From an uncultured Adlercreutzia sp. (GTDB lineage: Bacteria > Actinomycetota > Coriobacteriia > Coriobacteriales > Eggerthellaceae): a DNA stretch of 64,000 nucleotides. The first letter of the stretch is position 1, and every line of letters starts with the position of its first letter. Below, piece by piece: positions 52,274 through 64,000 of this stretch. The notes below the pieces were generated by a model, which had not been told where the DNA came from, searched no databases, and saw only the letters and a list, made by a program, of their open reading frames with translations. Location of the stretch: NCBI RefSeq assembly GCF_910589165.1, contig NZ_CAJUSP010000007.1. One strand, 5' to 3'. Made by a program: the position numbers and the translations under genes.

Positions 52274-54211
52274 GTGACCGGACAGGGAACTATGCAAGGC
52301 AAGACCTTCGGCGATCGCTACGAGATTAAAGATCGCATCGGCATCGGCGGCATGGCCGAGGTGTACCGCGCCCAGGACAACACGCTGGGCCGCGTGGTGG
52401 CCGTGAAGGTGATGCTGCCGCAATTCGCGGCCGATCCGCAGTTCACCCAGCGTTTCCGCCAGGAGGCGGCGGCTGCGGCGAACCTGCAGAGCCCCTACAT
52501 CGTGAACGTGTACGACTGGGGTCACGACGACGATACCTACTATATAGTGATGGAATTCGTGCGCGGGTCCGATTTGAAGACCGCCATCCAGCAGCGCGGC
52601 GCCATCAACCAGCGCAAGGCCGCGGAAATCGGCTCGCAGGTGTGCCAGGCGCTTACCGTGGCCCACAACCAGGACATCATCCACCGCGACATCAAGCCGC
52701 AGAACATCATGGTGCAGCCCGACGGCAACGTGAAGGTGATGGACTTCGGCATCGCCCGGGCGAAGAACTCCGTGAACGACAAGACGTCGGCCGTGCTGGG
52801 CACCGCGCACTACATTTCGCCGGAACAGGCCCAGGGCAAGGACCTTACGGCCGCCAGCGACATTTACTCGCTCGGCGTGGTGCTGTACGAGGCCACCACC
52901 GGCAAGCTGCCCTTCGACGGGCCCGACGCGGTGTCGGTGGCCATGCAGCAGGTGAAGGACGATCCGGTGCCGCCTTCGGCCATCAACCCGTCCATCGACC
53001 CCGACCTTGAGGACATCATCATGGTGGCCCTCGCGAAGGATCCGGCGGCCCGCTTCGCCACGGCCAACGACATGCGCGTGGCCCTTATGGACTACCTGGC
53101 CGGGCGCCCCGTGACGCTGCCCGCCGGGGTTATGGGCTCGTCGTTCACCGAGGCGCAGACCCGCATGATGGGCGCCGTGGGCGCGCCGGGGCAGACGCCG
53201 GGCATCGCCAGCACCCAGGTGATGCCGACGGTGGCCGGTGCGGGCATGGGCGCCGTGTCGCCGGGCGCCACGGGCACCTTCCAGCCCACCGACTTCCGCG
53301 CGGCGAACACGAAGAAGAGCAAGAAACCCGTTATTGTGGCCCTGGTGGCCGTGCTGTGCGTGGCGCTTATTGCCGGCATCGCCTTCGCGGTGGTGGGCGG
53401 CATGGGCGCGGGCGCGGCCGACGACGAGCCCATCGATGTGCCCAGCGTAGTGGGCCAGACCCAGGAAGAGGCATCGTTCACCCTGGAGCAAGCTGGTTTC
53501 AAGGTAACCGTGGTCACCGAGGAAAGCGATTCCGAGGAAGAAGGCACGGTTCTCAGCCAGGACCCGGCCGGCGGTACCAAGCAGCCCAAGGGCACCAGCA
53601 TCACGCTGACCGTGGCCGTGGGGCCCGACACTGTGGAGGTGCCGAACTTCAAGAACATGACCCTTGACGAGGCGAAGAGCGAGGCCGCGGGGCTGGGTCT
53701 GAAGGTGGTGGAGTCCGAAAGCAAGTACTCGGAAGACGTGGATGCCGGCAAGATTCTCTCGCAGAACTACCAGGCCGGCGAGGCCGTAGCGCCCGGCACC
53801 ACCATCGAGGTGGTTACCTCGCGCGGCAGCGAGACCACGACGGTGCCCAATGTCATCGGCATGACCGAGGACGAGGCCTACGACGCGCTGCAGGAGGCCG
53901 GCTTCGGCGTGAACGTGAAGGCCCGCGAGTACAGCGACAAGCAGAAGGAAGGCCGCGTCATTCGCCAGGACCCGCTGAACGACAAGGTGAAGCCGGGCTC
54001 CACGGTGGACATCACCATTTCGAAGGGCCCCGAGCCTGAGCCCGAGCCGGAAGAGCCGGAAGAGCCCACCAATCCGGGCACGACGAACCCCGGCACTACC
54101 AACCCGGGCACGACTGACCCGGGCACCGGCGGCGACGGCTCGACCACCGACCCGGGCACGACCGACCCCGGCACCGGCGACGGCGGCGACACCACGACCC
54201 AGGCGGCCTAA
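52274..54211 (+). CDS. pknB: Ser/Thr protein kinase PknB with three PASTA domains and a PGTT(N/D) repeat tail
   Basis: GIGGMAEVYRA, HRDIKPQN, DFGIA, one TM, three PASTA repeats. GTG 52274 follows AAGGAG. Confidence 0.95.
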   Translation: MTGQGTMQGKTFGDRYEIKDRIGIGGMAEVYRAQDNTLGRVVAVKVMLPQFAADPQFTQRFRQEAAAAANLQSPYIVNVYDWGHDDDTYYIVMEFVRGSDLKTAIQQRGAINQRKAAEIGSQVCQALTVAHNQDIIHRDIKPQNIMVQPDGNVKVMDFGIARAKNSVNDKTSAVLGTAHYISPEQAQGKDLTAASDIYSLGVVLYEATTGKLPFDGPDAVSVAMQQVKDDPVPPSAINPSIDPDLEDIIMVALAKDPAARFATANDMRVALMDYLAGRPVTLPAGVMGSSFTEAQTRMMGAVGAPGQTPGIASTQVMPTVAGAGMGAVSPGATGTFQPTDFRAANTKKSKKPVIVALVAVLCVALIAGIAFAVVGGMGAGAADDEPIDVPSVVGQTQEEASFTLEQAGFKVTVVTEESDSEEEGTVLSQDPAGGTKQPKGTSITLTVAVGPDTVEVPNFKNMTLDEAKSEAAGLGLKVVESESKYSEDVDAGKILSQNYQAGEAVAPGTTIEVVTSRGSETTTVPNVIGMTEDEAYDALQEAGFGVNVKAREYSDKQKEGRVIRQDPLNDKVKPGSTVDITISKGPEPEPEPEEPEEPTNPGTTNPGTTNPGTTDPGTGGDGSTTDPGTTDPGTGDGGDTTTQAA

Positions 54212-54327: not shown

Positions 54328-55218
54328 ATGCCCAACCTCTTCGACATATTCGACAAGTTCGTGCACGCCGACTGGTTCAACACCTTCCTCGGCGTTGTTA
54401 TCATCTGCGCCATCACCTTCGTGATCTGCCGCATCGCGGTCACGTTTATGCGCCGCATCCTGAACAAGACCACGCTACTGCCGACGAGCTCCATCTTCAT
54501 CAACCTCGTGCGCGCCATTGTGTGGATCATCGGCATCTGCGCTGTGCTGGCCATCTGCTTCAACGTGAACATTAACGGCATGATCGCTGGCCTGGGCGTT
54601 GTTGGTATCGCCGTGTCGCTGGGCTTTCAGGACACGCTTTCAAATTTGCTGGGCGGCCTGCAGGTAAGCCTGTCGCGCAGCGTGGAGCCGGGCGACAACA
54701 TCAAAATGGGCTCGAGCGGCGTCACCGGCGTGGTGCAGGACGTCACCTGGCGCTATACCGAAATCATCGACAGCTCGGGCAACCACATTACCATCCCGAA
54801 CTCGCTTATGACCTCGACGGCCGTGATGAAGCTGTCGCCGCTGAACAGCATCTCTATCCCCCTGGTGGTGACCACCAACAGCGAGCGGCTCACCACCACC
54901 GCGCACCACATTGAAGACGCCGCCGAGAAGGCCGTGTCACGCGTAAGCAAGCTGAAGAAGCACCCGTCGGTGTCGTTCAGCTCCATCGGCGAGCACGGCT
55001 TCCAAGGCTCCCTGAGCTTCACCATAGCCGATGCCGACAAGGCCTCAAGCGCCGTAGATGCCGCCATCCGCGCCGTGGCCCCCTACGTGCACAACCACCT
55101 GGTGGAAGAAGAAATGAGCAACCTGAGCGAAGGCCAGCTGCCCGCCCTCTCCCCCGACACCACCGGCACCCTCATCCCCGTTCCCGAAAAAGAAAGCGAG
55201 CCCGAGAAATCCGCCTAA
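54328..55218 (+). CDS. MscS-family mechanosensitive channel
   Basis: 3 TM, then GVVGIAVSLGFQDTLSNLLGGLQVSL...GDNIKMGSSGVTGVVQDVTWRYTEI. Confidence 0.85.
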   Translation: MPNLFDIFDKFVHADWFNTFLGVVIICAITFVICRIAVTFMRRILNKTTLLPTSSIFINLVRAIVWIIGICAVLAICFNVNINGMIAGLGVVGIAVSLGFQDTLSNLLGGLQVSLSRSVEPGDNIKMGSSGVTGVVQDVTWRYTEIIDSSGNHITIPNSLMTSTAVMKLSPLNSISIPLVVTTNSERLTTTAHHIEDAAEKAVSRVSKLKKHPSVSFSSIGEHGFQGSLSFTIADADKASSAVDAAIRAVAPYVHNHLVEEEMSNLSEGQLPALSPDTTGTLIPVPEKESEPEKSA

Positions 55219-55288: not shown

Positions 55289-55561
55289 CTATGCTGAGGC
55301 CAAATCCCTGGCAACCAGCAACCTAAGATAGTCAGAGCGCGTGGCGCCAAGCTGCGCCGCTCGTGCATCGATCGCTGCTATGACGGCGGGGGTCTCCTTG
55401 AAGGTGATAGGACGCATGGGCTCGTCGAAAAGGGCTGGGCGGCCTATTCGAGGACGTCCGTACTCTTCGCGATTCCAACGTCCCTCCTCGAAAGAGGCAG
55501 CCAGCTCTTCGACCTGCTCTTCGGTCATTCCAAGCAGCTCGTTCATCTTCTCGCGGTTCAC
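55289..55561 (-). CDS. Ribbon-helix-helix (CopG-like) antitoxin-like protein
   Basis: C-terminus ITFKETPAVIAAIDARAAQLGATRSDYLRLLVARDLA is an RHH signature. Start is GTG 55561 (after GGAAGAGG) or ATG 55546. Confidence 0.6.
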   Translation of the reverse strand: MNREKMNELLGMTEEQVEELAASFEEGRWNREEYGRPRIGRPALFDEPMRPITFKETPAVIAAIDARAAQLGATRSDYLRLLVARDLASA

Positions 55562-55565
55562 AATT

Positions 55566-55835
55566 CTACCTCTTCCCCAGTCCAAGCTCCGCAAGCGTCT
55601 TCCGCGTCGGCGGCGTCATCGCATGAAAGATAACCCACGTACCAAGCGTCACCTTTTGCCCCACCATCTCAACAAGCCTACCGTGCATATCGGCTCCAAT
55701 GGCGATATAACGTACAGGATCCGTCCCAAGGCGCGGCAAGAAAACGATTGCGTTCTCCCAGGCAGCTAGAACATCGCTCTCACTGAGGTCGGGGTGTCGC
55801 TCCGTAATTCGCGGATGAACATACAAGCGATCCAT
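55566..55835 (-). CDS. Small uncharacterised protein, putative toxin partner of the RHH protein
   Basis: 89 aa, placed immediately upstream of and tightly coupled to the RHH gene. TTGACC-17nt-TACGAT promoter-like and AAGGAGG upstream. I do not recognise the family. Confidence 0.45.
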   Translation of the reverse strand: MDRLYVHPRITERHPDLSESDVLAAWENAIVFLPRLGTDPVRYIAIGADMHGRLVEMVGQKVTLGTWVIFHAMTPPTRKTLAELGLGKR

Positions 55836-55968
55836 GCCGCCTCCTTGCTAGCTAATATCGTATTACTAAAATAATATATGGTCAAGTTGCATTTTCTGGA
55901 AATTGATGAGCCGTAAGACAGCCGCAAATCGTATCGGCTATCAAACCCAAAAAGAGCTTACTCGCACA

Positions 55969-56099
55969 GAACCGTCAAAACGTCGGGGGGATTTCCCGTT
56001 TGCGGCCGCCCGCAAACCGTGACGCGGCCGCATTTTTGCTGCCTGCAAACCGTGACGGCGCCGCACCGCCGCCCCTCCCGCAACCGTCACAGAGCCGCA
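55969..56099. repeat. Repeat element A, copy 1 (131 bp, internally three sub-repeats of about 33 bp)
   Basis: Aligns by eye with 57352-57482. Contains GCAAACCGTGACG at 56012 and 56045 and the variant GCAACCGTCACAG at 56080. Confidence 0.85.
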
Positions 56100-56114
56100 A
56101 AGCAGCGAGAAAAC

Positions 56115-56148
56115 GCTGGAGGGCGGCACATCAGTGCCGCCCTCCAGC
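56115..56148 (-). terminator. GC-rich hairpin H1
   Basis: GCTGGAGGGCGGCAC-ATCA-GTGCCGCCCTCCAGC, directly downstream of the Rpn-like fragment. Confidence 0.6.
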
Positions 56149-56187
56149 TCGGTTGTCTAAGCCTTGACCGGCAGAACGCCCGGCGGA

Positions 56188-56571
56188 CTAAGCGCGTTCC
56201 TTGCTGAGCATCCGCTCGCGGAAGGCGACATCCTCGGCGGCGCGGGCGGCCTCCTCGACGCGCCCTTCCTTGAGCAAGCGAGCCATGAGCGCGGCCATCT
56301 CGCCCGCTCCCTCCTCGCGGCCCTCGGCGCGCTCGCGGCGGCAGCGCATGGCTATGTCCTCCTCCAGCATCATGACCCTGCTCACCCACTTCCGGTCGCT
56401 GTTGTACTCGTCGACGAGGGAGTCTATCTCGCGCGAGAGCTCGCCTCCCGCGCTGTCCTCGCGGAGGTATCTTAACAGATCGCAGAGGTCGGGGTCGGCG
56501 GCGTCGGCCCATGCGCGGGCGTTGGATGGCGCCGCGCCGCCGCCTCTCCCGCAGGCGTTGCACAACCGCAT
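56188..56571 (-). pseudogene. Probable 3' fragment of an Rpn/YhgA-like (PD-(D/E)XK putative transposase) gene, or a small standalone homologue of its C-terminal region
   Basis: DPDLCDLLRYL...NSDRKWVSRVMMLEEDIAMRCRRERAEGREEGAGEMAALMARLLKEGRVEEAARAAED resembles the C-terminal E-G-R-repeat region of that family. The first 22 or so codons are encoded by repeat A'. Confidence 0.35.
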
Positions 56572-56750
56572 TCCGGCGCAGAACGTTTGCCGGAGTCCGT
56601 GCGGCAGTATTGACCTGGATCAGAGCACCGATACCGCAAGTCGAAGGTGCGCGGAACGAGGAAACAATCGGAGAACAATGCGCAGAGAGCCTGTCGCTCA
56701 GACCGCACAAGAAGGGGAGGGGCGCTAGCCCCTCCCCTTGGTCTTCTCCG
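56505..56750. repeat. Partial repeat A (3' half) plus repeat B copy 1, including hairpin H2 (56712-56739)
   Basis: Aligns by eye with 57425-57668. Hairpin AAGGGGAGGGGC-GCTA-GCCCCTCCCCTT lies directly downstream of brnA. Confidence 0.8.
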
Positions 56751-56768: not shown

Positions 56769-57026
56769 CTAGCGTCCGGCTGCCGCCTTCCGCCGCTTCA
56801 GCCCCTCGTCAACGATCATCTTGATCACCGCCTGGCGGCTGATGGCCAGCCTGTCGGCCTCTTCGTCGAGATCGGCGATCATCCAATGGGGAAAGTCCAC
56901 ATTCACCCGCCGCGTTTCGTTGCGGCCGTCGACCATGACCCCGTTGTCCAAATCCACGTACTCGGAGATATCCGCGCCCTCGTCAAAGAGACGATCGAAC
57001 TCCTCAGCCGTTATAGTATCTGTCAT
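56769..57026 (-). CDS. brnA: BrnA-type antitoxin (CopG/RHH)
   Basis: EEFDRLFDEGADISEYVDL...RRVNVDFPHWMIADLDEEADRLAISRQAVIKMIV is typical of BrnA. Overlaps brnT by 23 nt. Confidence 0.8.
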   Translation of the reverse strand: MTDTITAEEFDRLFDEGADISEYVDLDNGVMVDGRNETRRVNVDFPHWMIADLDEEADRLAISRQAVIKMIVDEGLKRRKAAAGR

Positions 57027-57276
57027 AAGCGCTACGCTCCTTTCCCGTTGCGCGACGCACCGATATGATTCTCATACTGGCTCCTCGCCACGTTGTCACC
57101 GCCGTCCAGTACTCTCCCTCAATCCGGCCGACAACGATTTCCCTCTCCTCGCCTGTTACCTTTGCCACACTGACAACGAAATGCGGTGCATCCCAAAGAG
57201 CCTGGGCCTCCTCGAAGTTTATCCCGTGCTTTTCCTGATTGCTGATACTCTTATTTACATCATATTCAAACTCCAT
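57004..57276 (-). CDS. brnT: BrnT-family (DUF497) toxin
   Basis: MEFEYDVNKSISNQEKHGINFEEAQALWD...RIISVRRATGKERSAY is the canonical BrnT pattern. Start ATG 57276. Confidence 0.85.
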   Translation of the reverse strand: MEFEYDVNKSISNQEKHGINFEEAQALWDAPHFVVSVAKVTGEEREIVVGRIEGEYWTAVTTWRGASMRIISVRRATGKERSAYDRYYNG

Positions 57277-57351
57277 AGATATCCCCTTTTGGTATATACA
57301 GTATACCTTTTGAGTAATCCTCACTTGCTAATTTCAGAGCCTATCAAAACC

Positions 57352-57668
57352 GAACCGTCAAAACGTCGGGGGGATTTCCCGTTTGCAGTCGCCCGCAAAC
57401 CGTCGCGCAGCCGCATTTCCGCCGCCCGCAAACCGCGACGGCGCCGCATCGCCGCCCCTCCCGCAGCCGTCACAGAGCCGCATTCCCGCACGGAATCGCG
57501 CACAAAGCCCGTGCGGCAGTATCGGCTTGGATCGGGATCCCCGATACCGCAAGTCGAAGGTTAATCGAAGGCGCGCTGAACGAAGAAGCAATCGCAGAAT
57601 GAGGCACAGAGAGTCTGACTCAGACCGCACAAGAAGGGGAGGGGCGTTAGCCCCTCCCCTGGTCTTTC
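57352..57668. repeat. Contiguous repeat A copy 2 + repeat B copy 2, including hairpin H3 (57635-57660)
   Basis: A2 is 57352-57482 and B2 is 57478-57668. Hairpin AGGGGAGGGGC-GTTA-GCCCCTCCCCT. Confidence 0.85.
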
Positions 57669-58028
57669 CTATGTCGCGGCCCCCATCGGGCCGCCTGCCG
57701 CCCTCGGGCCTATGCGGCCAGCAGGGCCGCCAGATCCTCTCGGCTGGCGAACGGGCGCGGCTCGGCGTCGGGCTCGTGGGCGGGCACTACCTCGCCCTCC
57801 CAGACGTCGCCGCCCTTGTCGAACTTGCGCGAGCGCACCACCCAGCGAAACGCCGGGCGCGCCTTCTCGTCCAGCTCGGCCACCTCGTCGGGGAACGTCA
57901 TCCCCGCGAGCGTCCGCTCGAGCGCCGACAGCTCGTTCTCGCCGCGGTCGGGGGTCACAAGCCCGCTCTCCGGGTTGTACACCACGCCCTCGCCGACGAA
58001 CGCCAGGCGCATCTTCTCGCGGCGCTTG
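57669..58028. repeat. W-repeat copy 1 (360 bp)
   Basis: Essentially identical by eye to 60434-60793 and 62043-62402. One synonymous difference was seen, at the last Ala codon. Confidence 0.9.
57710..58012 (-). pseudogene. 5'-truncated copy of the W gene (C-terminal 100 codons only)
   Basis: Encodes MRLAFVGEGVVYNPESGLVTPDRGENELSALERTL...LAALLAA, identical to residues 65-164 of the full copy. Both TM helices are missing. Confidence 0.5.
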
Positions 58029-58032
58029 TCGA

Positions 58033-58068
58033 TTTTATCCCCCCATTTATCCCCCCATTTATCCCCCC
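58033..58068. repeat. Tandem 12-mer (T/A)TTTATCCCCCC x3
   Basis: Read directly from the sequence. Starts 5 nt after the W-repeat breakpoint and ends 36 nt before the start of the second AlbA_2 gene. Confidence 0.9.
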
Positions 58069-58104
58069 ACGTGCTTATGCCATAATGGCCACCAGGAGGA
58101 GCCT

Positions 58105-59487
58105 ATGAAGACCCTGGAAGAAATAGTCGAAGAACTTGCCGCTAGACCGTGTGAAGAAGAGTGGTTCGAATTCAAGACCAACTGCCACGAGGCAAACGTA
58201 ATTGGAGAGTACATCTCAGCGCTGTCCAACGCAGCCGCCCTTAAGGCCGCTGATGAAGGGTACCTACTTTGGGGAATCCACGACAAGACCCATGAAGTTG
58301 TCGGTACGGACTTCGACTACAGGGCCACAGTAAAAGGTGAGCCACTTGAACATTTTCTCGCTCGGCAATTGACTCCCGACACCGCCTTCTCCTTTGAGGA
58401 GGGACTCGTTGACCACAAACGCGTCGTAGTCATGAGAACGCCTCCGGCACGTCAGGTTCCTACCGCCTTCAACGGAAAGCGCTTTCTCCGCATCGGCTCC
58501 AGCAAAGTTAATCTCTCGCGGTTCCCCGAGAGGGAGGCGGCGCTCTTCAGAGCTCTCCTTCAAGATCCTCCGACCATGGAAAACACCCCTGCTGTAAGCC
58601 AGGAGATGAGTTTTACGAAACTCTTCACGCATTACGCAAACAGAGGCATTGAGCTGCGGCGGGACACTTTTGAAAAGAACCTGGGCCTGCTGACACCCGA
58701 CGGTGACAGAAATCTGCTTGCACAGCTGCTAAGCGACGACAGTAAAATACCAGTGAGGGTTTCGGTATTTCGGGGAAAAGACAAGACGACCCCTCTTGTA
58801 TCGGTTAGAGAGTTCGGCAACACCTGCCTCCTCTCGACTCTGGAGAAGATCTTGGAATACGGCGACGTGATAAACCTCATCCAGGCGGACGAGAGAAATC
58901 GAACCGTCGCAAGAGAAGAGTCCCCACTCTTCAATTCCGACGTATTCCGCGAAGCTGTTGTCAACGCTTTCGTCCACAATAAATGGGTCGACGGCAACGC
59001 CCCAATGGTCACCGTTTATTCCGATCGACTGGAGATAGTCTCCCGGGGTAAGCTCGGTTCAAGCCAAACTACTGAGGGCTTCTTCCGCGGGGAATCGATT
59101 CCCGTAAATCGAAGACTGTCCGATATCTTCCTTCAGCTTCACATAAGCGAGCGATCGGGGCGCGGCGTCCCCACTATCGTCGATGCGTACGGGCGCGACA
59201 CCTACGAGTTTAGGGAAAACTCGATCGCACTAACAATACCCTTCGCCTGGATACAGGAGCCCTATAGCCCAAGTGAAGCAATCTGCGAGGAGCCCCCTAG
59301 CCTTACACCTATCCAAGCCGATGTATACAATGCAATCAAAGCCAATCCGCATATTACCCAGCCACAACTGGTTGAGCTCCTCGGCAGCAGCCGGAACACC
59401 GTCCAACGCGCAGTATCCTCCTTGCGCGAAGCGGGCCTCATAGAGCGTGTCGGATCAAACAAAACCGGATACTGGGAGGTTCACTAG
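58105..59487 (+). CDS. AlbA_2 (Schlafen-like) + HATPase_c_4 + wHTH protein, second and divergent paralogue
   Basis: EEEWFEFKTN...ALSNAAALKAADEGYLLWGIHDKTHEVVGT (AlbA_2), VVNAFVHNKW...ERSGRGVPTI (HATPase_c_4-like), SRNTVQRAVSSLREAGLIERV (wHTH). AGGAGGA RBS. GC visibly lower than the flanks. Confidence 0.85.
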   Translation: MKTLEEIVEELAARPCEEEWFEFKTNCHEANVIGEYISALSNAAALKAADEGYLLWGIHDKTHEVVGTDFDYRATVKGEPLEHFLARQLTPDTAFSFEEGLVDHKRVVVMRTPPARQVPTAFNGKRFLRIGSSKVNLSRFPEREAALFRALLQDPPTMENTPAVSQEMSFTKLFTHYANRGIELRRDTFEKNLGLLTPDGDRNLLAQLLSDDSKIPVRVSVFRGKDKTTPLVSVREFGNTCLLSTLEKILEYGDVINLIQADERNRTVAREESPLFNSDVFREAVVNAFVHNKWVDGNAPMVTVYSDRLEIVSRGKLGSSQTTEGFFRGESIPVNRRLSDIFLQLHISERSGRGVPTIVDAYGRDTYEFRENSIALTIPFAWIQEPYSPSEAICEEPPSLTPIQADVYNAIKANPHITQPQLVELLGSSRNTVQRAVSSLREAGLIERVGSNKTGYWEVH

Positions 59488-59596
59488 CTGCTTATCACGA
59501 ACCAGTTAGAGAGAAGCTCCCGACCCTGGCCTGAGGGGCGCACCTACTTCTTCTTCTGGAAGCCGTGCAAGGCTACCAGCTGGAATCCGTCGTCTC

Positions 59597-60373
59597 TCAC
59601 TGCCCAAGAACACGCATATCTAGCTTCATCATGCAGTTTCCGGAGGCATCATTATTCTTTTCATAGTGGATTACCTCGAATCGGATCTCGGTTCTATCCG
59701 TGAAGACCTGTCCAACTACGCTGCGTCTGGAGATATCGACCTCTATGCTTGGCATTTCTATCTCCCTAAAAGCACGTGATACATCTACTCCATTCTCAGC
59801 ATATGGTAATTCGTTAAAACAGAAGAACGCTAGCGCCTCTAGGTAAACCGCAGGAAATGTAATACGTTGATCTTCCTCTTCCTGAATGAAGGCTAGGTAC
59901 TCTGTTTCGTCCATAGAATAATTCATGCCCTCAGAACCCACGACCAGCCTTACTTCGATACTGCCGTCTTGAAAGGGCTCGCTTACAGATGACGTTATAC
60001 GCGTTAGCCTCGCAAGAGAATCGAGATTGGCTGCCACCCGCCAGTCAAGCTCAACATCAAGAGCAGCTCCCTTGCCCACGTTTGCTAGGACAACACTCGG
60101 GATTGTAAGCGTATCGCTATGCTCCTTGCTAGCGTCTAAATCGGAGGAGTAGTTCGCAGCGTCTATTAACATGCCGCTTTGATTCCACGCTATGGAAACA
60201 TAGGAGCTGCTCAGTCTTATCTCAGACCGAGTCTCTATCTCGTTCGCATCACGTGTCAACTGCATCGTAGAAAATGATACTATCATTGCCAATATAGAAA
60301 CAACGACTGCAATTATAGAAACCACTGTCTCGACCCCACGTCGCCATTTGGACGATTGTTTCGCGTGCTTCAT
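59597..60373 (-). CDS. AT-rich gene V2: single-pass membrane-anchored protein of unknown family
   Basis: MKHAKQSSKWRRGVETVVSIIAVVVSILAMIVSF, then about 220 aa of soluble domain. Only the last 259 codons of track ORF 59597..60910 are credible. Confidence 0.65.
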   Translation of the reverse strand: MKHAKQSSKWRRGVETVVSIIAVVVSILAMIVSFSTMQLTRDANEIETRSEIRLSSSYVSIAWNQSGMLIDAANYSSDLDASKEHSDTLTIPSVVLANVGKGAALDVELDWRVAANLDSLARLTRITSSVSEPFQDGSIEVRLVVGSEGMNYSMDETEYLAFIQEEEDQRITFPAVYLEALAFFCFNELPYAENGVDVSRAFREIEMPSIEVDISRRSVVGQVFTDRTEIRFEVIHYEKNNDASGNCMMKLDMRVLGQ

Positions 60374-60385
60374 TGCTTTCCCCTT

Positions 60386-60933
60386 TGCAGCAAAGGGGAG
60401 GCGGCGCGTAAGCGCCGCCTCCCCTCTTGGTTGGCTATGTCGCGGCCCCATCAGACCGCTTGTCGCCCTCGGGCCTACGCGGCCAGCAGGGCCGCCAGAT
60501 CCTCTCGGCTGGCGAACGGGCGCGGCTCGGCGTCGGGCTCGTGGGCGGGCACTACCTCGCCCTCCCAGACGTCGCCGCCCTTGTCGAACTTGCGCGAGCG
60601 CACCACCCAGCGAAACGCCGGGCGCGCCTTCTCGTCCAGCTCGGCCACCTCGTCGGGGAACGTCATCCCCGCGAGCGTCCGCTCGAGCGCCGACAGCTCG
60701 TTCTCGCCGCGGTCGGGGGTCACAAGCCCGCTCTCCGGGTTGTACACCACGCCCTCGCCGACGAACGCCAGGCGCATCTTCTCGCGGCGCTTGGACTCGG
60801 CCCAGTAGATGCCGCCGATCACGGCGGCCACCACGGCCCACCAGGCCACGGCGACGATCAGGTCCAGCGGGTCGTCCACGTGGTTGAAGCCCAGGGCGAA
60901 CCACACCCACAGCAGCACCCCCGCAGCGACGGC
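60386..60933. repeat. W-repeat copy 2 (548 bp), including hairpin H4 (60394-60425)
   Basis: Matches 61991-62542. Within the coding part I saw a single synonymous difference (GAT/GAC). Confidence 0.9.
60475..60918 (-). pseudogene. N-terminally truncated W gene copy (lacks the first 12 codons)
   Basis: An in-frame TAA (60934-60936) sits exactly at the homology breakpoint. Only a GTG at 60918 could restart translation. Confidence 0.45.
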
Positions 60934-60976
60934 TTAGAGAAGCAGCGGATACTCCGAAATACTCCGAAGCAAGAAC

Positions 60977-61885
60977 CTACGCCTCCGCTACCACACATGA
61001 TGCTTCAGCATCTTTCTCGTCCAAACAGACGAGAGCGTCCTCTGGATTCATTTCAAGTACCTCTATGTCGTGACATAAAATGGCTATTCCGTACGGAGAC
61101 ATTTTTCTCCAAGAAAGCCTCGATTGCATATCGAGGAAGGCGCTGACAGAAAAGCCCATGACGACCGCTATGACTACTAACACTATAGTCAGTGCGAGAG
61201 TTTCCGCAACGTTATCGGGGCTTTTTTCCAAGCTGTTCAATAAATACGGGATCAATGCACCAGTTATCAAAGCGATAACTACAGTAGTAATCCGATCTTT
61301 GCTCCTTTTTTCTTCCTCGCCTGTCTTTCTATATTTTTCGTTTGTTATTTTTATAAAATTTTTATAATTCTCTTTTGTTATATAACCATTCTTTACCATG
61401 TTCGAGAACGTATCTAGTGCTGCGCGGGACTGATAACCCTTCCTAATCTCACCGTAGCTTGAAGATTCTATTCGGTCAACAACCGCAGCAACGGCCAATG
61501 CGATGAACACCACAACAAGCAGCACTTCAGGAAGTGCTTTTAGAATTATCAGAAGTTCTAACACCAACGCAACGATGAGTAAGCACAGCACTGCAAGGAA
61601 AAATCCACGACTACTCCTTGAGTCTATCCTTTTGGCCATCTTTGTAACACGTCCGTCCATCGTAGGATTTACTGAGGCATAGGAATCGAGCCACTTTACT
61701 CTCTCTTCCAGCCAGACTTTAGCGCACTTTTCGTACGTGAGAGGAGACTCTGGGGCATGGCAACCTCGAACATGGATCGTCTCCCCGCTAAGCTCGCTGT
61801 CTTCGACGGTTATTCGAGGCACCTTAGCAGTATGACACAGCGAATCTATGTCACTTCTAACAATAATGTCTATACTTACTGGCAT
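60977..61885 (-). CDS. AT-rich gene V1: 4-TM membrane protein with a ~95-aa N-terminal soluble domain, unknown family
   Basis: 302 aa. Hydrophobic pairs GFFLAVLCLLIVALVLELLIIL/VLLVVVFIALAVAAVV and ITTVVIALITGALIPYLL/LALTIVLVVIAVVMGFSV are separated by a K/E-rich segment. Sampled 60-nt lines have 17-40% GC. Confidence 0.65.
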   Translation of the reverse strand: MPVSIDIIVRSDIDSLCHTAKVPRITVEDSELSGETIHVRGCHAPESPLTYEKCAKVWLEERVKWLDSYASVNPTMDGRVTKMAKRIDSRSSRGFFLAVLCLLIVALVLELLIILKALPEVLLVVVFIALAVAAVVDRIESSSYGEIRKGYQSRAALDTFSNMVKNGYITKENYKNFIKITNEKYRKTGEEEKRSKDRITTVVIALITGALIPYLLNSLEKSPDNVAETLALTIVLVVIAVVMGFSVSAFLDMQSRLSWRKMSPYGIAILCHDIEVLEMNPEDALVCLDEKDAEASCVVAEA

Positions 61886-61990
61886 GCCTTATAAGCCTTT
61901 CTTAAACTATAATTTCTTTAATTATATCATCTCTCATACTGTTAGTTCCAGTCTGTGCTCTCTTGACAATCTCATCCGACCTGAGATTAC

Positions 61991-62542
61991 TGCAGCAACA
62001 AAGGAGAGGCGGCGCGTAAGCGCCGCCTCTCCTCTTGGTTGGCTATGTCGCGGCCCCCATCGGGCCGCCTGTCGCCCTCGGGCCTACGCGGCCAGCAGGG
62101 CCGCCAGGTCCTCTCGGCTGGCGAACGGGCGCGGCTCGGCGTCGGGCTCGTGGGCGGGCACTACCTCGCCCTCCCAGACGTCGCCGCCCTTGTCGAACTT
62201 GCGCGAGCGCACCACCCAGCGAAACGCCGGGCGCGCCTTCTCGTCCAGCTCGGCCACCTCGTCGGGGAACGTCATCCCCGCGAGCGTCCGCTCGAGCGCC
62301 GACAGCTCGTTCTCGCCGCGGTCGGGGGTCACAAGCCCGCTCTCCGGGTTGTACACCACGCCCTCGCCGACGAACGCCAGGCGCATCTTCTCGCGGCGCT
62401 TGGACTCGGCCCAGTAGATGCCGCCGATCACGGCGGCCACCACGGCCCACCAGGCCACGGCGACGATCAGGTCCAGCGGGTCGTCCACGTGGTTGAAGCC
62501 CAGGGCGAACCACACCCACAGCAGCACCCCCGCAGCGACGGC
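61991..62542. repeat. W-repeat copy 3 (552 bp), including hairpin H5 (62002-62033)
   Basis: See copies 1 and 2. This copy is embedded in the only full-length W gene. Confidence 0.9.
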
Positions 62543-62578
62543 CGCGATGGCAGTTACCAGCCAGTTGCTCTTTCTCAT
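62084..62578 (-). CDS. W: small 2-TM protein with a ~100-aa C-terminal soluble domain, unknown family (full-length copy)
   Basis: MRKSNWLVTAIAAVAAGVLLWVWFALGF...LIVAVAWWAVVAAVIGGIYWAESKRREKMRLAF.... GGAGAAC-type RBS (AAGGAGAACTAAG) before the ATG. Confidence 0.6.
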   Translation of the reverse strand: MRKSNWLVTAIAAVAAGVLLWVWFALGFNHVDDPLDLIVAVAWWAVVAAVIGGIYWAESKRREKMRLAFVGEGVVYNPESGLVTPDRGENELSALERTLAGMTFPDEVAELDEKARPAFRWVVRSRKFDKGGDVWEGEVVPAHEPDAEPRPFASREDLAALLAA

Positions 62579-62638: not shown

Positions 62639-64000
62639 TTACAGGGTCTGGCTCCCGGACAGGGGCACGTAGGCCGGCTCGGCCTCGTCCTCGATGCCCA
62701 GAACCTTCTTCTCGTAGTCGTCTACGTCGTCGGCCATGTGCAGGCGGCGGCGGACAACGACCAGCCCGTAGGCGGAGGTCAGCAGGATGCCAATCAGCAT
62801 CACCCAGTGCACCCAGCAGTGCGGCTCGTCGAAGGCGCCCATCGGGGTGCCGTCGTCCTCGATCTGCTGAGCAGCCGGGGCCTCGTCCTGAGCCGTCGGG
62901 GCGGCAGCCTGAGGCGTGGCATCGTCGTCGATGGTCTCACCAGCCGGAGCCGGGGCCGCAGCCGCAGGAGCCGCGGGAGCAGCAGGCGCAGCCGGAGCCG
63001 GAACCGCAGGCGTCACCGCAGCCGGGGTAGCCGGCGTAGGCGTCGGGGTCGGCGTAGGTGCAGGCGCAGGCGTCGGAGTCGGCGTCGGGGTCGGCACAGG
63101 TAGCGGCGCGGGCGCAGTGATCGAGAAGCTTCCCGGAACCACCGTCACAACATAGTTGGGGTTCGAAGTGTACTCTGCGCGAAGAACATCACGGTAATCG
63201 CCAATAGCTTGGTTGGATCCAATGCGAACATAGCGGACAATCCCCAGATCATTCTCATCCACAAGAGAACCATCAGTGATACGGCCCGTGAACGCCGGAT
63301 CGGCCGTACCGAACACCTTAGTCGCATCATCAACCGTAATAGTCACCGGACGCTGGGTAATCAGAACAGTAGCGGTTTGGATTCCAGTGTCGGTGTAGTT
63401 GTCGAGCGACGCATAGGCCTGGACGGTATGGCGACCAACCGTCGTGAAAGAGGGCACTTCGGTCGTCCACTCTCCGCCGTCAACGGAATAGTAAATCGTA
63501 GAGCCTTCCATGGCAGCGGCCTCAGCAGTCACCGGGCGGCCGTCATAAACCTTGGTAAGTCCGGCGATGTCTACAAACTGAACAAGATTGCCAGAAGCTG
63601 CCACAATTTCGAAGTTGCCTTTCTTGATCTCGGCAACCTCGTAGTTTTTGTTTACGCTTTCACTGTCGTAAACCGCATCCAGAACGCCGTAGTAAACACC
63701 TTCATCTTCGTCAGTGTTCTCGCGAACAACATCAACCTTGCCAAATTCGTCAGAGAGAAGCAAACCATCGATCTCAACACCGTTGTATCCCTCGGGGTCG
63801 AGAGTGTTGAAGTATTTGCTTGCATCATGAACAGTAATGGTCAGCGGTGCAGGATGGATAGTAACAGTGCCTTCCCCAGACCAAATAACCTGGTTAACCT
63901 CGTTAGCAATGCCAATCTTTATAGTAGGCACATCGTCACCCTCAACGGCGTTCTTGTAGAGAGCTTCGCTAGGAACACCGTTCGAAGCATCAATCCATTT
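62639..64000 (-). CDS. Large surface protein with MBG-type repeats, PT/PA-rich stalk and PMGAFD-TM-RRRL C-terminal module (N-terminus outside the window)
   Basis: The frame stays open to position 64000; the track start 63931 is only an internal GTG. KVYDGRPVT and KVFGTADPAFTG...GDYRDVL...NPNYVVTVVPGSFSIT are MBG-domain-like. Confidence 0.8.
   Translation of the reverse strand, partial: KWIDASNGVPSEALYKNAVEGDDVPTIKIGIANEVNQVIWSGEGTVTIHPAPLTITVHDASKYFNTLDPEGYNGVEIDGLLLSDEFGKVDVVRENTDEDEGVYYGVLDAVYDSESVNKNYEVAEIKKGNFEIVAASGNLVQFVDIAGLTKVYDGRPVTAEAAAMEGSTIYYSVDGGEWTTEVPSFTTVGRHTVQAYASLDNYTDTGIQTATVLITQRPVTITVDDATKVFGTADPAFTGRITDGSLVDENDLGIVRYVRIGSNQAIGDYRDVLRAEYTSNPNYVVTVVPGSFSITAPAPLPVPTPTPTPTPAPAPTPTPTPTPATPAAVTPAVPAPAAPAAPAAPAAAAPAPAGETIDDDATPQAAAPTAQDEAPAAQQIEDDGTPMGAFDEPHCWVHWVMLIGILLTSAYGLVVVRRRLHMADDVDDYEKKVLGIEDEAEPAYVPLSGSQTL

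Follow-up and report, generated by a model that had tools for sequence, protein, structure and literature searches.

Direct copies of a small membrane-protein gene punctuate a probable strain-variable defence and toxin-antitoxin cassette array in Adlercreutzia

We analysed a 64,000-nt stretch of DNA from an uncultured Adlercreutzia sp. (contig NZ_CAJUSP010000007.1 of assembly GCF_910589165.1; the whole stretch is called the window below), in which a small gene for a protein with two transmembrane (TM) helices, here named W, is present in three direct copies. We consider it reasonably probable that the segment from W to the mscS-pknB core cluster (~55.2-62.1 kb) holds an array, variable among strains, of defence and toxin-antitoxin (TA)-type cassettes, which was built and reshuffled by homologous recombination between the W copies. 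The flanks on the surface-protein-W side and on the mscS-pknB side are conserved and the content between them varies among strains, which is the mark of a hotspot. The array occurs genus-wide, with up to eight W copies, and is thus broader than can be seen from the window alone.

The W copies were searched for with a repeat finder, an ungapped register comparison, MAFFT and a BLASTN self-comparison, and all of them recovered the same three copies in the same orientation: copy A at 57669-58028 (360 nt), copy B at 60387-60933 (548 nt) and copy C at 61995-62542. Copies B and C are 98.5% identical over 548 nt, and copy A is 98-99% identical to both over 360 nt. Between the coding parts of C and B a single base is different (W nt 471), and between those of C and A two are (nt 471 and 492). 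All of these are third-codon positions and the translations are identical. Copy C belongs to the intact gene (62084..62578, minus strand), which encodes 164 aa with two TM helices and a small alpha/beta domain. The homology of copy B (W', 60475..60933, minus strand, W codons 13-164) begins exactly at W codon 13, with an in-frame TAA at 60934-60936 directly before it. The start codon and half of TM1 are absent, and the open reading frame (ORF) has 147 aa. The homology of copy A (W'', 57710..58028, minus strand, W nt 177-495) begins at W nt 177 (~codon 60) and its ORF counts 100 codons from the first ATG. It retains neither of the TM helices, which the AlphaFold2 (AF2) model places at residues 3-25 and 34-62. 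The sequence-only reading had described three near-identical direct copies with single synonymous differences, which form a truncation series from the full gene over a copy without 12 codons to a 100-codon copy without TM helices. All of this was borne out, including the TAA at the breakpoint of copy B.

Each copy is followed by hairpins whose folding is far more stable than that of shuffled controls and which resemble intrinsic terminators. The 3' untranslated region (UTR) of copy C (61995..62083, minus strand) carries a small hairpin, the motif GACATAGCCAACC and a strong terminator-like GC hairpin, hpC (minimum free energy -61 kcal/mol, z = -5.8). In the 3' UTR of copy B (60387..60474, minus strand) the large hairpin, hpB, is the same as hpC except for one compensatory pair. 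The 3' UTR of copy A (57336..57709, minus strand) contains the hairpin hpA (57635-57660) and the repeat elements D5 and D3. It had been suggested that the same hairpins stand after each copy. This is correct for the small first hairpin, which is common to A, B and C, and for the large hairpin of B and C, but the large hairpin of copy A has a different sequence.

The DNA between the copies has a foreign composition. W has a GC content of 71-72% and the whole window of 63%, while cassette 1 (cas1; 60934..61994, minus strand) has 43.5% and cassette 2 (cas2; 58029..60386) has 51.6%. The proposed AT-rich DNA after each copy is therefore present behind C and B, but copy A meets a repeat element of 63% GC first and then a BrnT/BrnA pair at 54% GC.

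Other genomes of the same species carry a different content at this locus. Contigs from at least six samples with an identical W protein represent the empty site; they run from the surface protein through W, hpA, D5 and D3 without a cassette, and the copy A 3' UTR sequence is what directly succeeds the single W in these strains. GCA_948478205.1 has two full-length W copies, one base apart. One of them is followed by an unrelated 269-aa gene, and the other has a DUF3800-like gene before it and Rpn-BrnTA after it, with the homology starting 107 nt upstream of W. In GCA_948615815.1 the order is W-hpB-cas2-W''-(100 N)-hpC-cas1-W', so that cas1 and cas2 appear in the order opposite to the window and each unit retains its own hairpin type and W breakpoint. 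At W nt 207, the first copy and W' of this genome share a single-nucleotide polymorphism (SNP) that W'' lacks.

The genus-wide comparison, in which loci are numbered with the prefix L, extended these observations. More than one W segment was found in 14 of the 103 first loci, always on the same strand, and full-length W is always the first copy. The array on a 674-kb contig (L104) contains eight W copies or fragments in 13 kb, all on one strand, with 77-98% protein identity to W and 86-97% DNA identity among themselves. Its cassettes are PBECR3, DUF3800, AbiEii/AbiEi, a 376-DUF3800-Rpn block, a 406-PBECR3 block, a CdiA_C-like gene and a PDC-S02 (DUF1016) nuclease. Other strains have differing subsets and orders of L104-type cassettes at 95-100% protein identity. 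Several of these arrangements equal L104 minus the interval between two W copies, and the subsets are consistent with W-to-W deletions or insertions. Moreover, cargo and W fragment recur together as units: DUF3800a with W16-81/88 in L104 and L001, PBECR3 with W2-50 in L104 and L043-46 (with W18-50 in L040), and 376-208-204 with W54-86 in L104 and L024. Two isolates carry traces of the same organisation, namely W-Rpn-W(nt 399-558) in A. shanghongiae R25 and a 41-nt W remnant beside decayed Schlafen and PBECR3 genes in A. rubneri. A species with an LRR/VWA gene after W (the L105 group) has a single W and no array.

The sequence-only reading had regarded the copies as substrates for recombination and had held that a fixed three-copy arrangement would speak against it. 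We observed an empty site, other cargo, one to eight W copies and varied orders, and these conspecific and congeneric differences in cargo, W number and cassette order support recombination between the copies. As a separate observation, L024 has an inverted W fragment (833-930, aa 124-156, opposite strand) right after the full W, which is the sole inverted W piece seen.

The extra W copies might have been kept by selection as functional paralogues, for example as soluble or shortened regulators or as immunity factors for each cassette. The length of the W' ORF (147 aa) and of the W'' ORF (100 aa from ATG) would allow this, and additional full-length copies exist in L104 and GCA_948478205.1. 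However, the breakpoints are scattered and cut through the TM helices, and in related genomes many W fragments have frameshifts or internal deletions or span no more than 40-200 nt. The W' junction has a TAA where a promoter or start codon would be needed, and the AbiE and BrnTA cargo systems are self-contained. We find paralogues very improbable. In the recombination-built array that we favour, the partial W copies would be non-working genes, that is, duplicated homology left by recombination and re-used in it.

The left cassette boundary is constant across independent cassettes and lies 8-10 nt past the terminator stem (at copy C, ~10 nt beyond the hpC stem). The right boundaries, which are the 5' ends of the W fragments, are scattered at -114, -107, 1, 37, ~45, ~160, 177, ~290, 399 and 472 relative to the W start. 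Every W fragment runs through to the usual W stop codon and terminator, and the cargo genes are separate from it. The motif GACATAGCCAACC is located between the two hairpins downstream of W, at 62036-62048 and 60428-60440 in the window, and also in the W 3' UTRs of L001, L003, L005 and L104. It is kept across Adlercreutzia species even where the stems differ, including the array-less species of the L105 group.

In the annotated arrays (window contig, L021/L022 and L104) no integrase or transposase Pfam family was found within 10 kb on either side. Pfam scans of the window ORFs and called genes agreed with the earlier statement that no integrase and no known toxin scaffold can be recognised. 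The repeat finder detected no inverted repeats of at least 30 nt in 55-64 kb. A tRNA as target was rejected since there is no tRNA within 24 kb, and Rfam gave no support for a structured RNA or attC-like element, with no hit in the repeats and just one sub-threshold hit outside them.

These boundaries bear on another explanation, tandem accretion of integrative elements that rebuild their target gene, which had been offered from the window alone. The elements would be small and similar to cis-mobilizable elements (CIMEs) or integrative and mobilizable elements (IMEs), with the recombinase elsewhere or lost; they would target the W end or its terminator and carry a W-like segment in the attachment region. 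An intact target gene at one end with displaced 3' fragments downstream, all direct, is what such accretion would leave, and the constant boundary just past the terminator hairpin, beside the GACATAGCCAACC motif conserved across species, would suit it too. On the other hand, no recombinase family lies within the 10 kb searched in these arrays, the repeats measure 160-690 nt and have many 5' ends and no single core, and the units are merely 1-2.4 kb with one or two genes. In addition, GACATAGCCAACC is present also in the array-less species. We did not retain tandem accretion and consider it unlikely.

For the recombination-built array, we propose that one unit would consist of a terminator variant, cargo and a 5'-truncated W. 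It would originate once, when a foreign DNA end was joined illegitimately to a point within W or shortly upstream of it. Illegitimate events must account both for this joint and for the initial capture of low-GC foreign DNA. Once formed, the unit could act like a translocatable unit. A crossover of W with W would loop out or delete it, and could also duplicate or re-insert it. For insertion, the W fragment of the unit would cross with any resident W in a Campbell-type single crossover of a circle or, alternatively, linear DNA would be inserted by a double crossover in which both arms are W. The product would have an intact W in front of the cargo and a truncated W behind it. Such a process would involve circular or linear intermediates and depend on host homologous recombination, and each joint would be illegitimate in origin.

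The observed succession of intact W, terminator, cargo and truncated W is as expected from single homologous crossovers within W. Crossovers between W copies would also account for the cassette-free site, for strains with only a subset of the cassettes, for the duplication of the PBECR3+W block and for the probable swap in order, in which the junctions were kept. Since it is unlikely that identical illegitimate joints were re-created independently in two orders, the movement of pre-formed units is favoured.

The window is derived from a short-read metagenome-assembled genome (MAG) and is 100% identical to contig CARJMA010000004.1 of GCA_949001925.1. The repeat core of ~430 identical nt is longer than short reads, therefore the near-identity of the copies and the cassette order are open to repeat collapse. 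The arrangement of the three copies along a single chromosome might then be false, or cas1 and cas2 might exist as circles or in sub-strains and have been threaded by the assembler through one collapsed repeat. Several assemblies indeed break inside the repeat (L013 and ~1.2-kb cas1-only contigs). The cas1 gene c302 stands alone on such ~1.2-kb contigs, which break within the W repeat, and one of them was found in at least 20 samples. One MAG shows the other order across an N gap. Furthermore, GCA_948702735.1 (L116) differs from the window over 14.9 kb at six positions only, as W nt 285 and W nt 310 are changed identically in A, B and C. The sequence-only reading had taken the near-identity of the copies as a sign of very recent duplication or ongoing gene conversion. 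Concerted evolution fits the six positions, and an assembler passing three times through one collapsed graph node would produce them as well.

However, the junctions between cas1 and W nt 37 and between cas2 and W nt 177 are unique sequence, so at least two 5'-truncated W copies exist beside cassettes, whatever their order. The order itself is the same in two more contiguous MAG assemblies (GCA_948702735.1 and GCA_948511665.1), which makes three together with the window, and GCA_948895695.1 is split in W', yet consistent with it. Copy-specific SNPs are kept at nt 471 and 492, and at nt 207 in L012. The same architecture is also present with diverged, unambiguously assembled copies in the 674-kb contig and in isolate genomes. 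We therefore give an assembly artefact or strain mixture only a small probability.

Several points nevertheless weigh against an array built by recombination between W copies. All same-species evidence comes from short-read MAGs or metagenome contigs, and the order swap in GCA_948615815.1 hinges on the 100-N scaffold gap inside a W copy. The W copies within a genome differ by 1-2 and W of most conspecific strains by 3-15; either imported units were therefore homogenised, or the donors were near-identical, or the similarity is an assembly artefact. In L104, a 799-nt duplication of PBECR3+W has its left end away from a W copy and needs additional illegitimate joints. The constant left boundary would also fit a site-specific process. 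As to defence function, cas1 and cas2 contain ORFans and a Schlafen/AlbA_2-winged-helix-turn-helix (wHTH) protein, with a weak PDC-S50 hit as the sole PADLOC match.

The family of W comprises ~280 clusters at 50% identity, its members are typically ~165 aa long, and every named or titled match is from Adlercreutzia or other Eggerthellaceae. The family members have two conserved TM helices and a small alpha/beta domain (AF2 model, pLDDT 74), and the C-terminus is conserved across 31 homologues. No significant match was obtained in Pfam, NCBIfam, PADLOC, a PDB sequence profile search or Foldseek on the AF2 model, which agrees with the earlier view that W matches no known family. There was also no toxin or Rhs/CdiA family match and no transposase similarity. 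Apparent chimeras of the W N-terminus with a new C-terminus in protein databases were rejected as polymorphic C-termini, as they are low-complexity inserts or frameshifted copies.

W is positioned directly behind a surface-protein gene in 10/10 reference genomes (L001-L010). In the window, the 3' part of this gene (62639..63931, minus strand) encodes an MBG domain (Pfam MBG_2), a Pro/Ala/Thr linker and a TM anchor, and on the full contig the gene is called as 600 aa. Contigs with an identical W protein have complete upstream genes of 495 or 600 aa and partial calls up to 978 aa. The last ~100 aa of the surface protein (TM anchor and tail) are kept genus-wide and the ectodomain is hypervariable, being of the MBG type in the window and of the LRR/VWA type elsewhere. 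Since the anchor tail is conserved, the ectodomain varied and W fixed behind it, the block of anchor tail, W and terminator forms an island of conservation with a hypervariable region on either side. A functional link of W to the tail-anchored surface proteins is possible.

The single gene of cas1, c302 (60977..61885, minus strand), encodes a 4-TM ORFan with sub-threshold similarity to SLATT/DUF4231. In cas2, the 1-TM ORFan c258 (59597..60373, minus strand), whose ribosome-binding site and ATG come 13 nt after the 3' UTR of copy B, is convergent with a Schlafen/AlbA_2 + HATPase_c_4 + wHTH gene (58105..59487, plus strand). Among 5.8 billion proteins, c302 and c258 have no homologue outside their own species (self matches only). 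W, c302 and c258 have no relatives in viral contigs, and a phage origin was therefore rejected. Plasmid relatives of the Schlafen-like protein reach only ~30%. The right end of cas2 contains three perfect tandem copies of the 12-nt repeat TTTATCCCCCCA (58034-58069). They are flanked by the W'' breakpoint on one side and by the beginning of the Schlafen/AlbA_2-wHTH gene on the other, and are possibly an operator for this protein's own HTH domain.

Across the arrays, cargo of the conflict-system type comprises BrnTA, AbiEi/AbiEii, PDC-S02, Rpn nuclease, PBECR3, CdiA_C-like and Schlafen/AlbA_2 genes. The recognised defence or TA systems, which are AbiEi/ii, PDC-S02, Rpn and BrnTA, are found in related arrays and, within the window, in the distal portion of its array. 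The two ORFan cassettes of the window would presumably serve in defence as well.

One cargo family could itself take part in the capture of genes. In conspecific L022, a full 273-aa Rpn gene lies between W and BrnT and scores 61 bits against TIGR01784, above the cut-off. Rpn-family nucleases (YhgA-like, PD-(D/E)xK) resident in the array might generate breaks and illegitimate joints beside W in a RecA-independent manner, and W with its terminator would thereby become a favoured site of insertion. RpnA is reported to promote RecA-independent recombination in E. coli (PMC5350276). We found an Rpn gene within 6 kb downstream of W in 9/11 loci with extra W fragments and in 11/51 without (Fisher p = 3e-4, uncorrected for relatedness). 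Moreover, 12-18 nt separate the Rpn stop codon from a W 5' breakpoint at two or more independent junctions (L005; L104/L024; also the fusion ORF P0094). Against this stand the confounding of the association by phylogeny, the lack of defined ends or a target motif among our findings, and the window itself, which holds just a nuclease-less C-terminal remnant. Rpn proteins are themselves reported to be toxic antiphage defence proteins with intragenic antitoxins (PMC10400941), so Rpn may be plain cargo. We regard Rpn-driven capture as a rather remote prospect.

It is also doubtful, although conceivable, that Eggerthellaceae have an integrase-free capture system analogous to integrons. The surface-protein tail, W and terminator would then form a landing pad, Rpn would make RecA-independent joints and the W copies would allow whole units to circulate between strains.

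Among known systems, the closest functional analogue of the recombination-built array is the IS26 translocatable unit with its IS26-punctuated arrays, here without a transposase. In both, cargo is interspersed with direct copies of one element and a unit is repeat plus cargo (PMC4196232, PMC4676283). IS26 units insert beside a pre-existing copy, homologous recombination excises or incorporates them, and the arrays vary by strain; similarly, the W array units recur in other contexts and orders (the own-species swap being from a gapped scaffold). Unlike IS26, the repeat of the W array is a host membrane-protein gene (164 aa) with its terminator, without transposase and inverted repeats. The W copies are cut at varied 5' positions, and there is no indication of an enzyme-catalysed conservative reaction.

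In complex class 1 integrons with ISCR1, the 3'-conserved segment is duplicated, and its second copy is variably 5'-truncated and flanks acquired genes. According to the accepted model for these regions, a circle with a fragment of the conserved segment integrates by homologous recombination. The W array differs from these duplications as it has no ISCR/HUH circle generator and is chromosomal in a Gram-positive gut actinobacterium.

The orphan arrays of rhs and cdiA-CT/cdiI also have a truncation series in direct orientation downstream of an intact gene, each fragment with differing conflict cargo, and the fragments can serve as homology for recombination (PMC4927057). However, W with its 164 aa and two TM helices is no toxin scaffold and its C-terminus is invariant. 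Its cargo is not fused in frame and consists of separate genes past the stop codon and terminator, often on the opposite strand. The comparison with orphan-module arrays made in the sequence-only reading therefore holds for a conserved gene end with variable downstream cargo at a polymorphic locus, but not in the strict sense.

Accretions of integrative and conjugative elements, IMEs and CIMEs likewise have an intact target at one end and 3'-end repeats between elements, and some of their units (CIMEs) lack an integrase (reviewed in PMC5704250). The W array differs from them in the absence of a nearby integrase, in its long and varied repeats with no short fixed core, and in its far smaller units.

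Core-flanked defence hotspots such as the cDHS of P. aeruginosa (PMC10250203) and integron cassette arrays resemble the W array in the fixed site, the strain-specific defence or TA genes and the compact cassettes. In contrast to both, the W array reiterates the flanking gene between the cassettes. There is no IntI-type recombinase, which CALINs lack by definition, among the called genes within 10 kb of the array. While attC sites are imperfect palindromes with R''/L''-L'/R' boxes and extrahelical bases, its separators are 360-550-nt gene copies with perfect GC-rich stems, 4-nt loops and a short T tail, and are thus terminator-like. Integron cassettes are mostly single promoterless ORFs in one orientation, whereas cas2 has two convergent genes and the PBECR3, CdiA_C and AbiE cassettes are oriented opposite to W.

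Beyond copy A, the array has a second kind of punctuation, in which two elements of hairpin, D5 and D3 bracket the BrnT/BrnA-type TA cassette (56769..57324, minus strand). The BrnT side matches Pfam BrnT_toxin (4e-22), and on the BrnA side the CopG_antitoxin match is sub-threshold (E 3e-4, 21.9 bits; gathering cut-off 28). The second D5/D3 copy (55953..56749, minus strand) is split by o127 (56188..56571, minus strand), the C-terminal remnant of an Rpn-family PD-(D/E)xK nuclease gene, after which a terminator hairpin is located at 56115-56148. The D3 copies (55953-56116 and 57336-57499) and the hairpin/D5 copies (56682-56738 and 57604-57660) are 78-90% identical. This repeat family is species-specific and stands before each distal cassette (Rpn, BrnTA and the small TA-like pair). 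D3 contains 33-nt tandem sub-repeats, and many short contigs terminate inside it.

The product of o127 corresponds to the C-terminal 120 residues of Rpn and is 87.5% identical to aa 152-271 of the full L022 gene. It is fused to a partial D3 element, departs from the full Rpn gene over one short stretch of repeats, and might be what is left of an orphan RpnS-like antitoxin.

The array ends with a TA-like cassette of two small overlapping genes (55289..55835, minus strand), after which come the convergent MscS gene (54328..55218, plus strand) and the pknB-pbp cluster. They encode 89 aa without a family and 101 aa with a VapB/RHH-like C-terminus, and resemble an unclassified TA pair. In the core cluster, the PknB-like kinase has a Thr/Pro/Gly-rich low-complexity tail (54100-54211) with TNPGTT repeats beyond its PASTA domains.

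When the full-text literature on Adlercreutzia or Eggerthellaceae was searched for defence islands, genomic islands and hypervariable loci, no paper on arrays of this kind in the genus came up. If the recombination-built array is correct, gut Actinobacteria would build and exchange small defence and TA cassettes at a fixed site without a dedicated integrase, using copies of a host gene as portable homology. This recombination-only route would join integrons, integrative elements and IS26-type units in the building of defence islands. It would also draw attention to a class of loci at which the assembly of short-read MAGs systematically breaks or goes wrong in its order, and would provide a natural setting for asking if the 'recombination-promoting' Rpn nucleases aid gene capture. 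For the genus itself, it would explain strain-level variation in a common and little-studied inhabitant of the gut.

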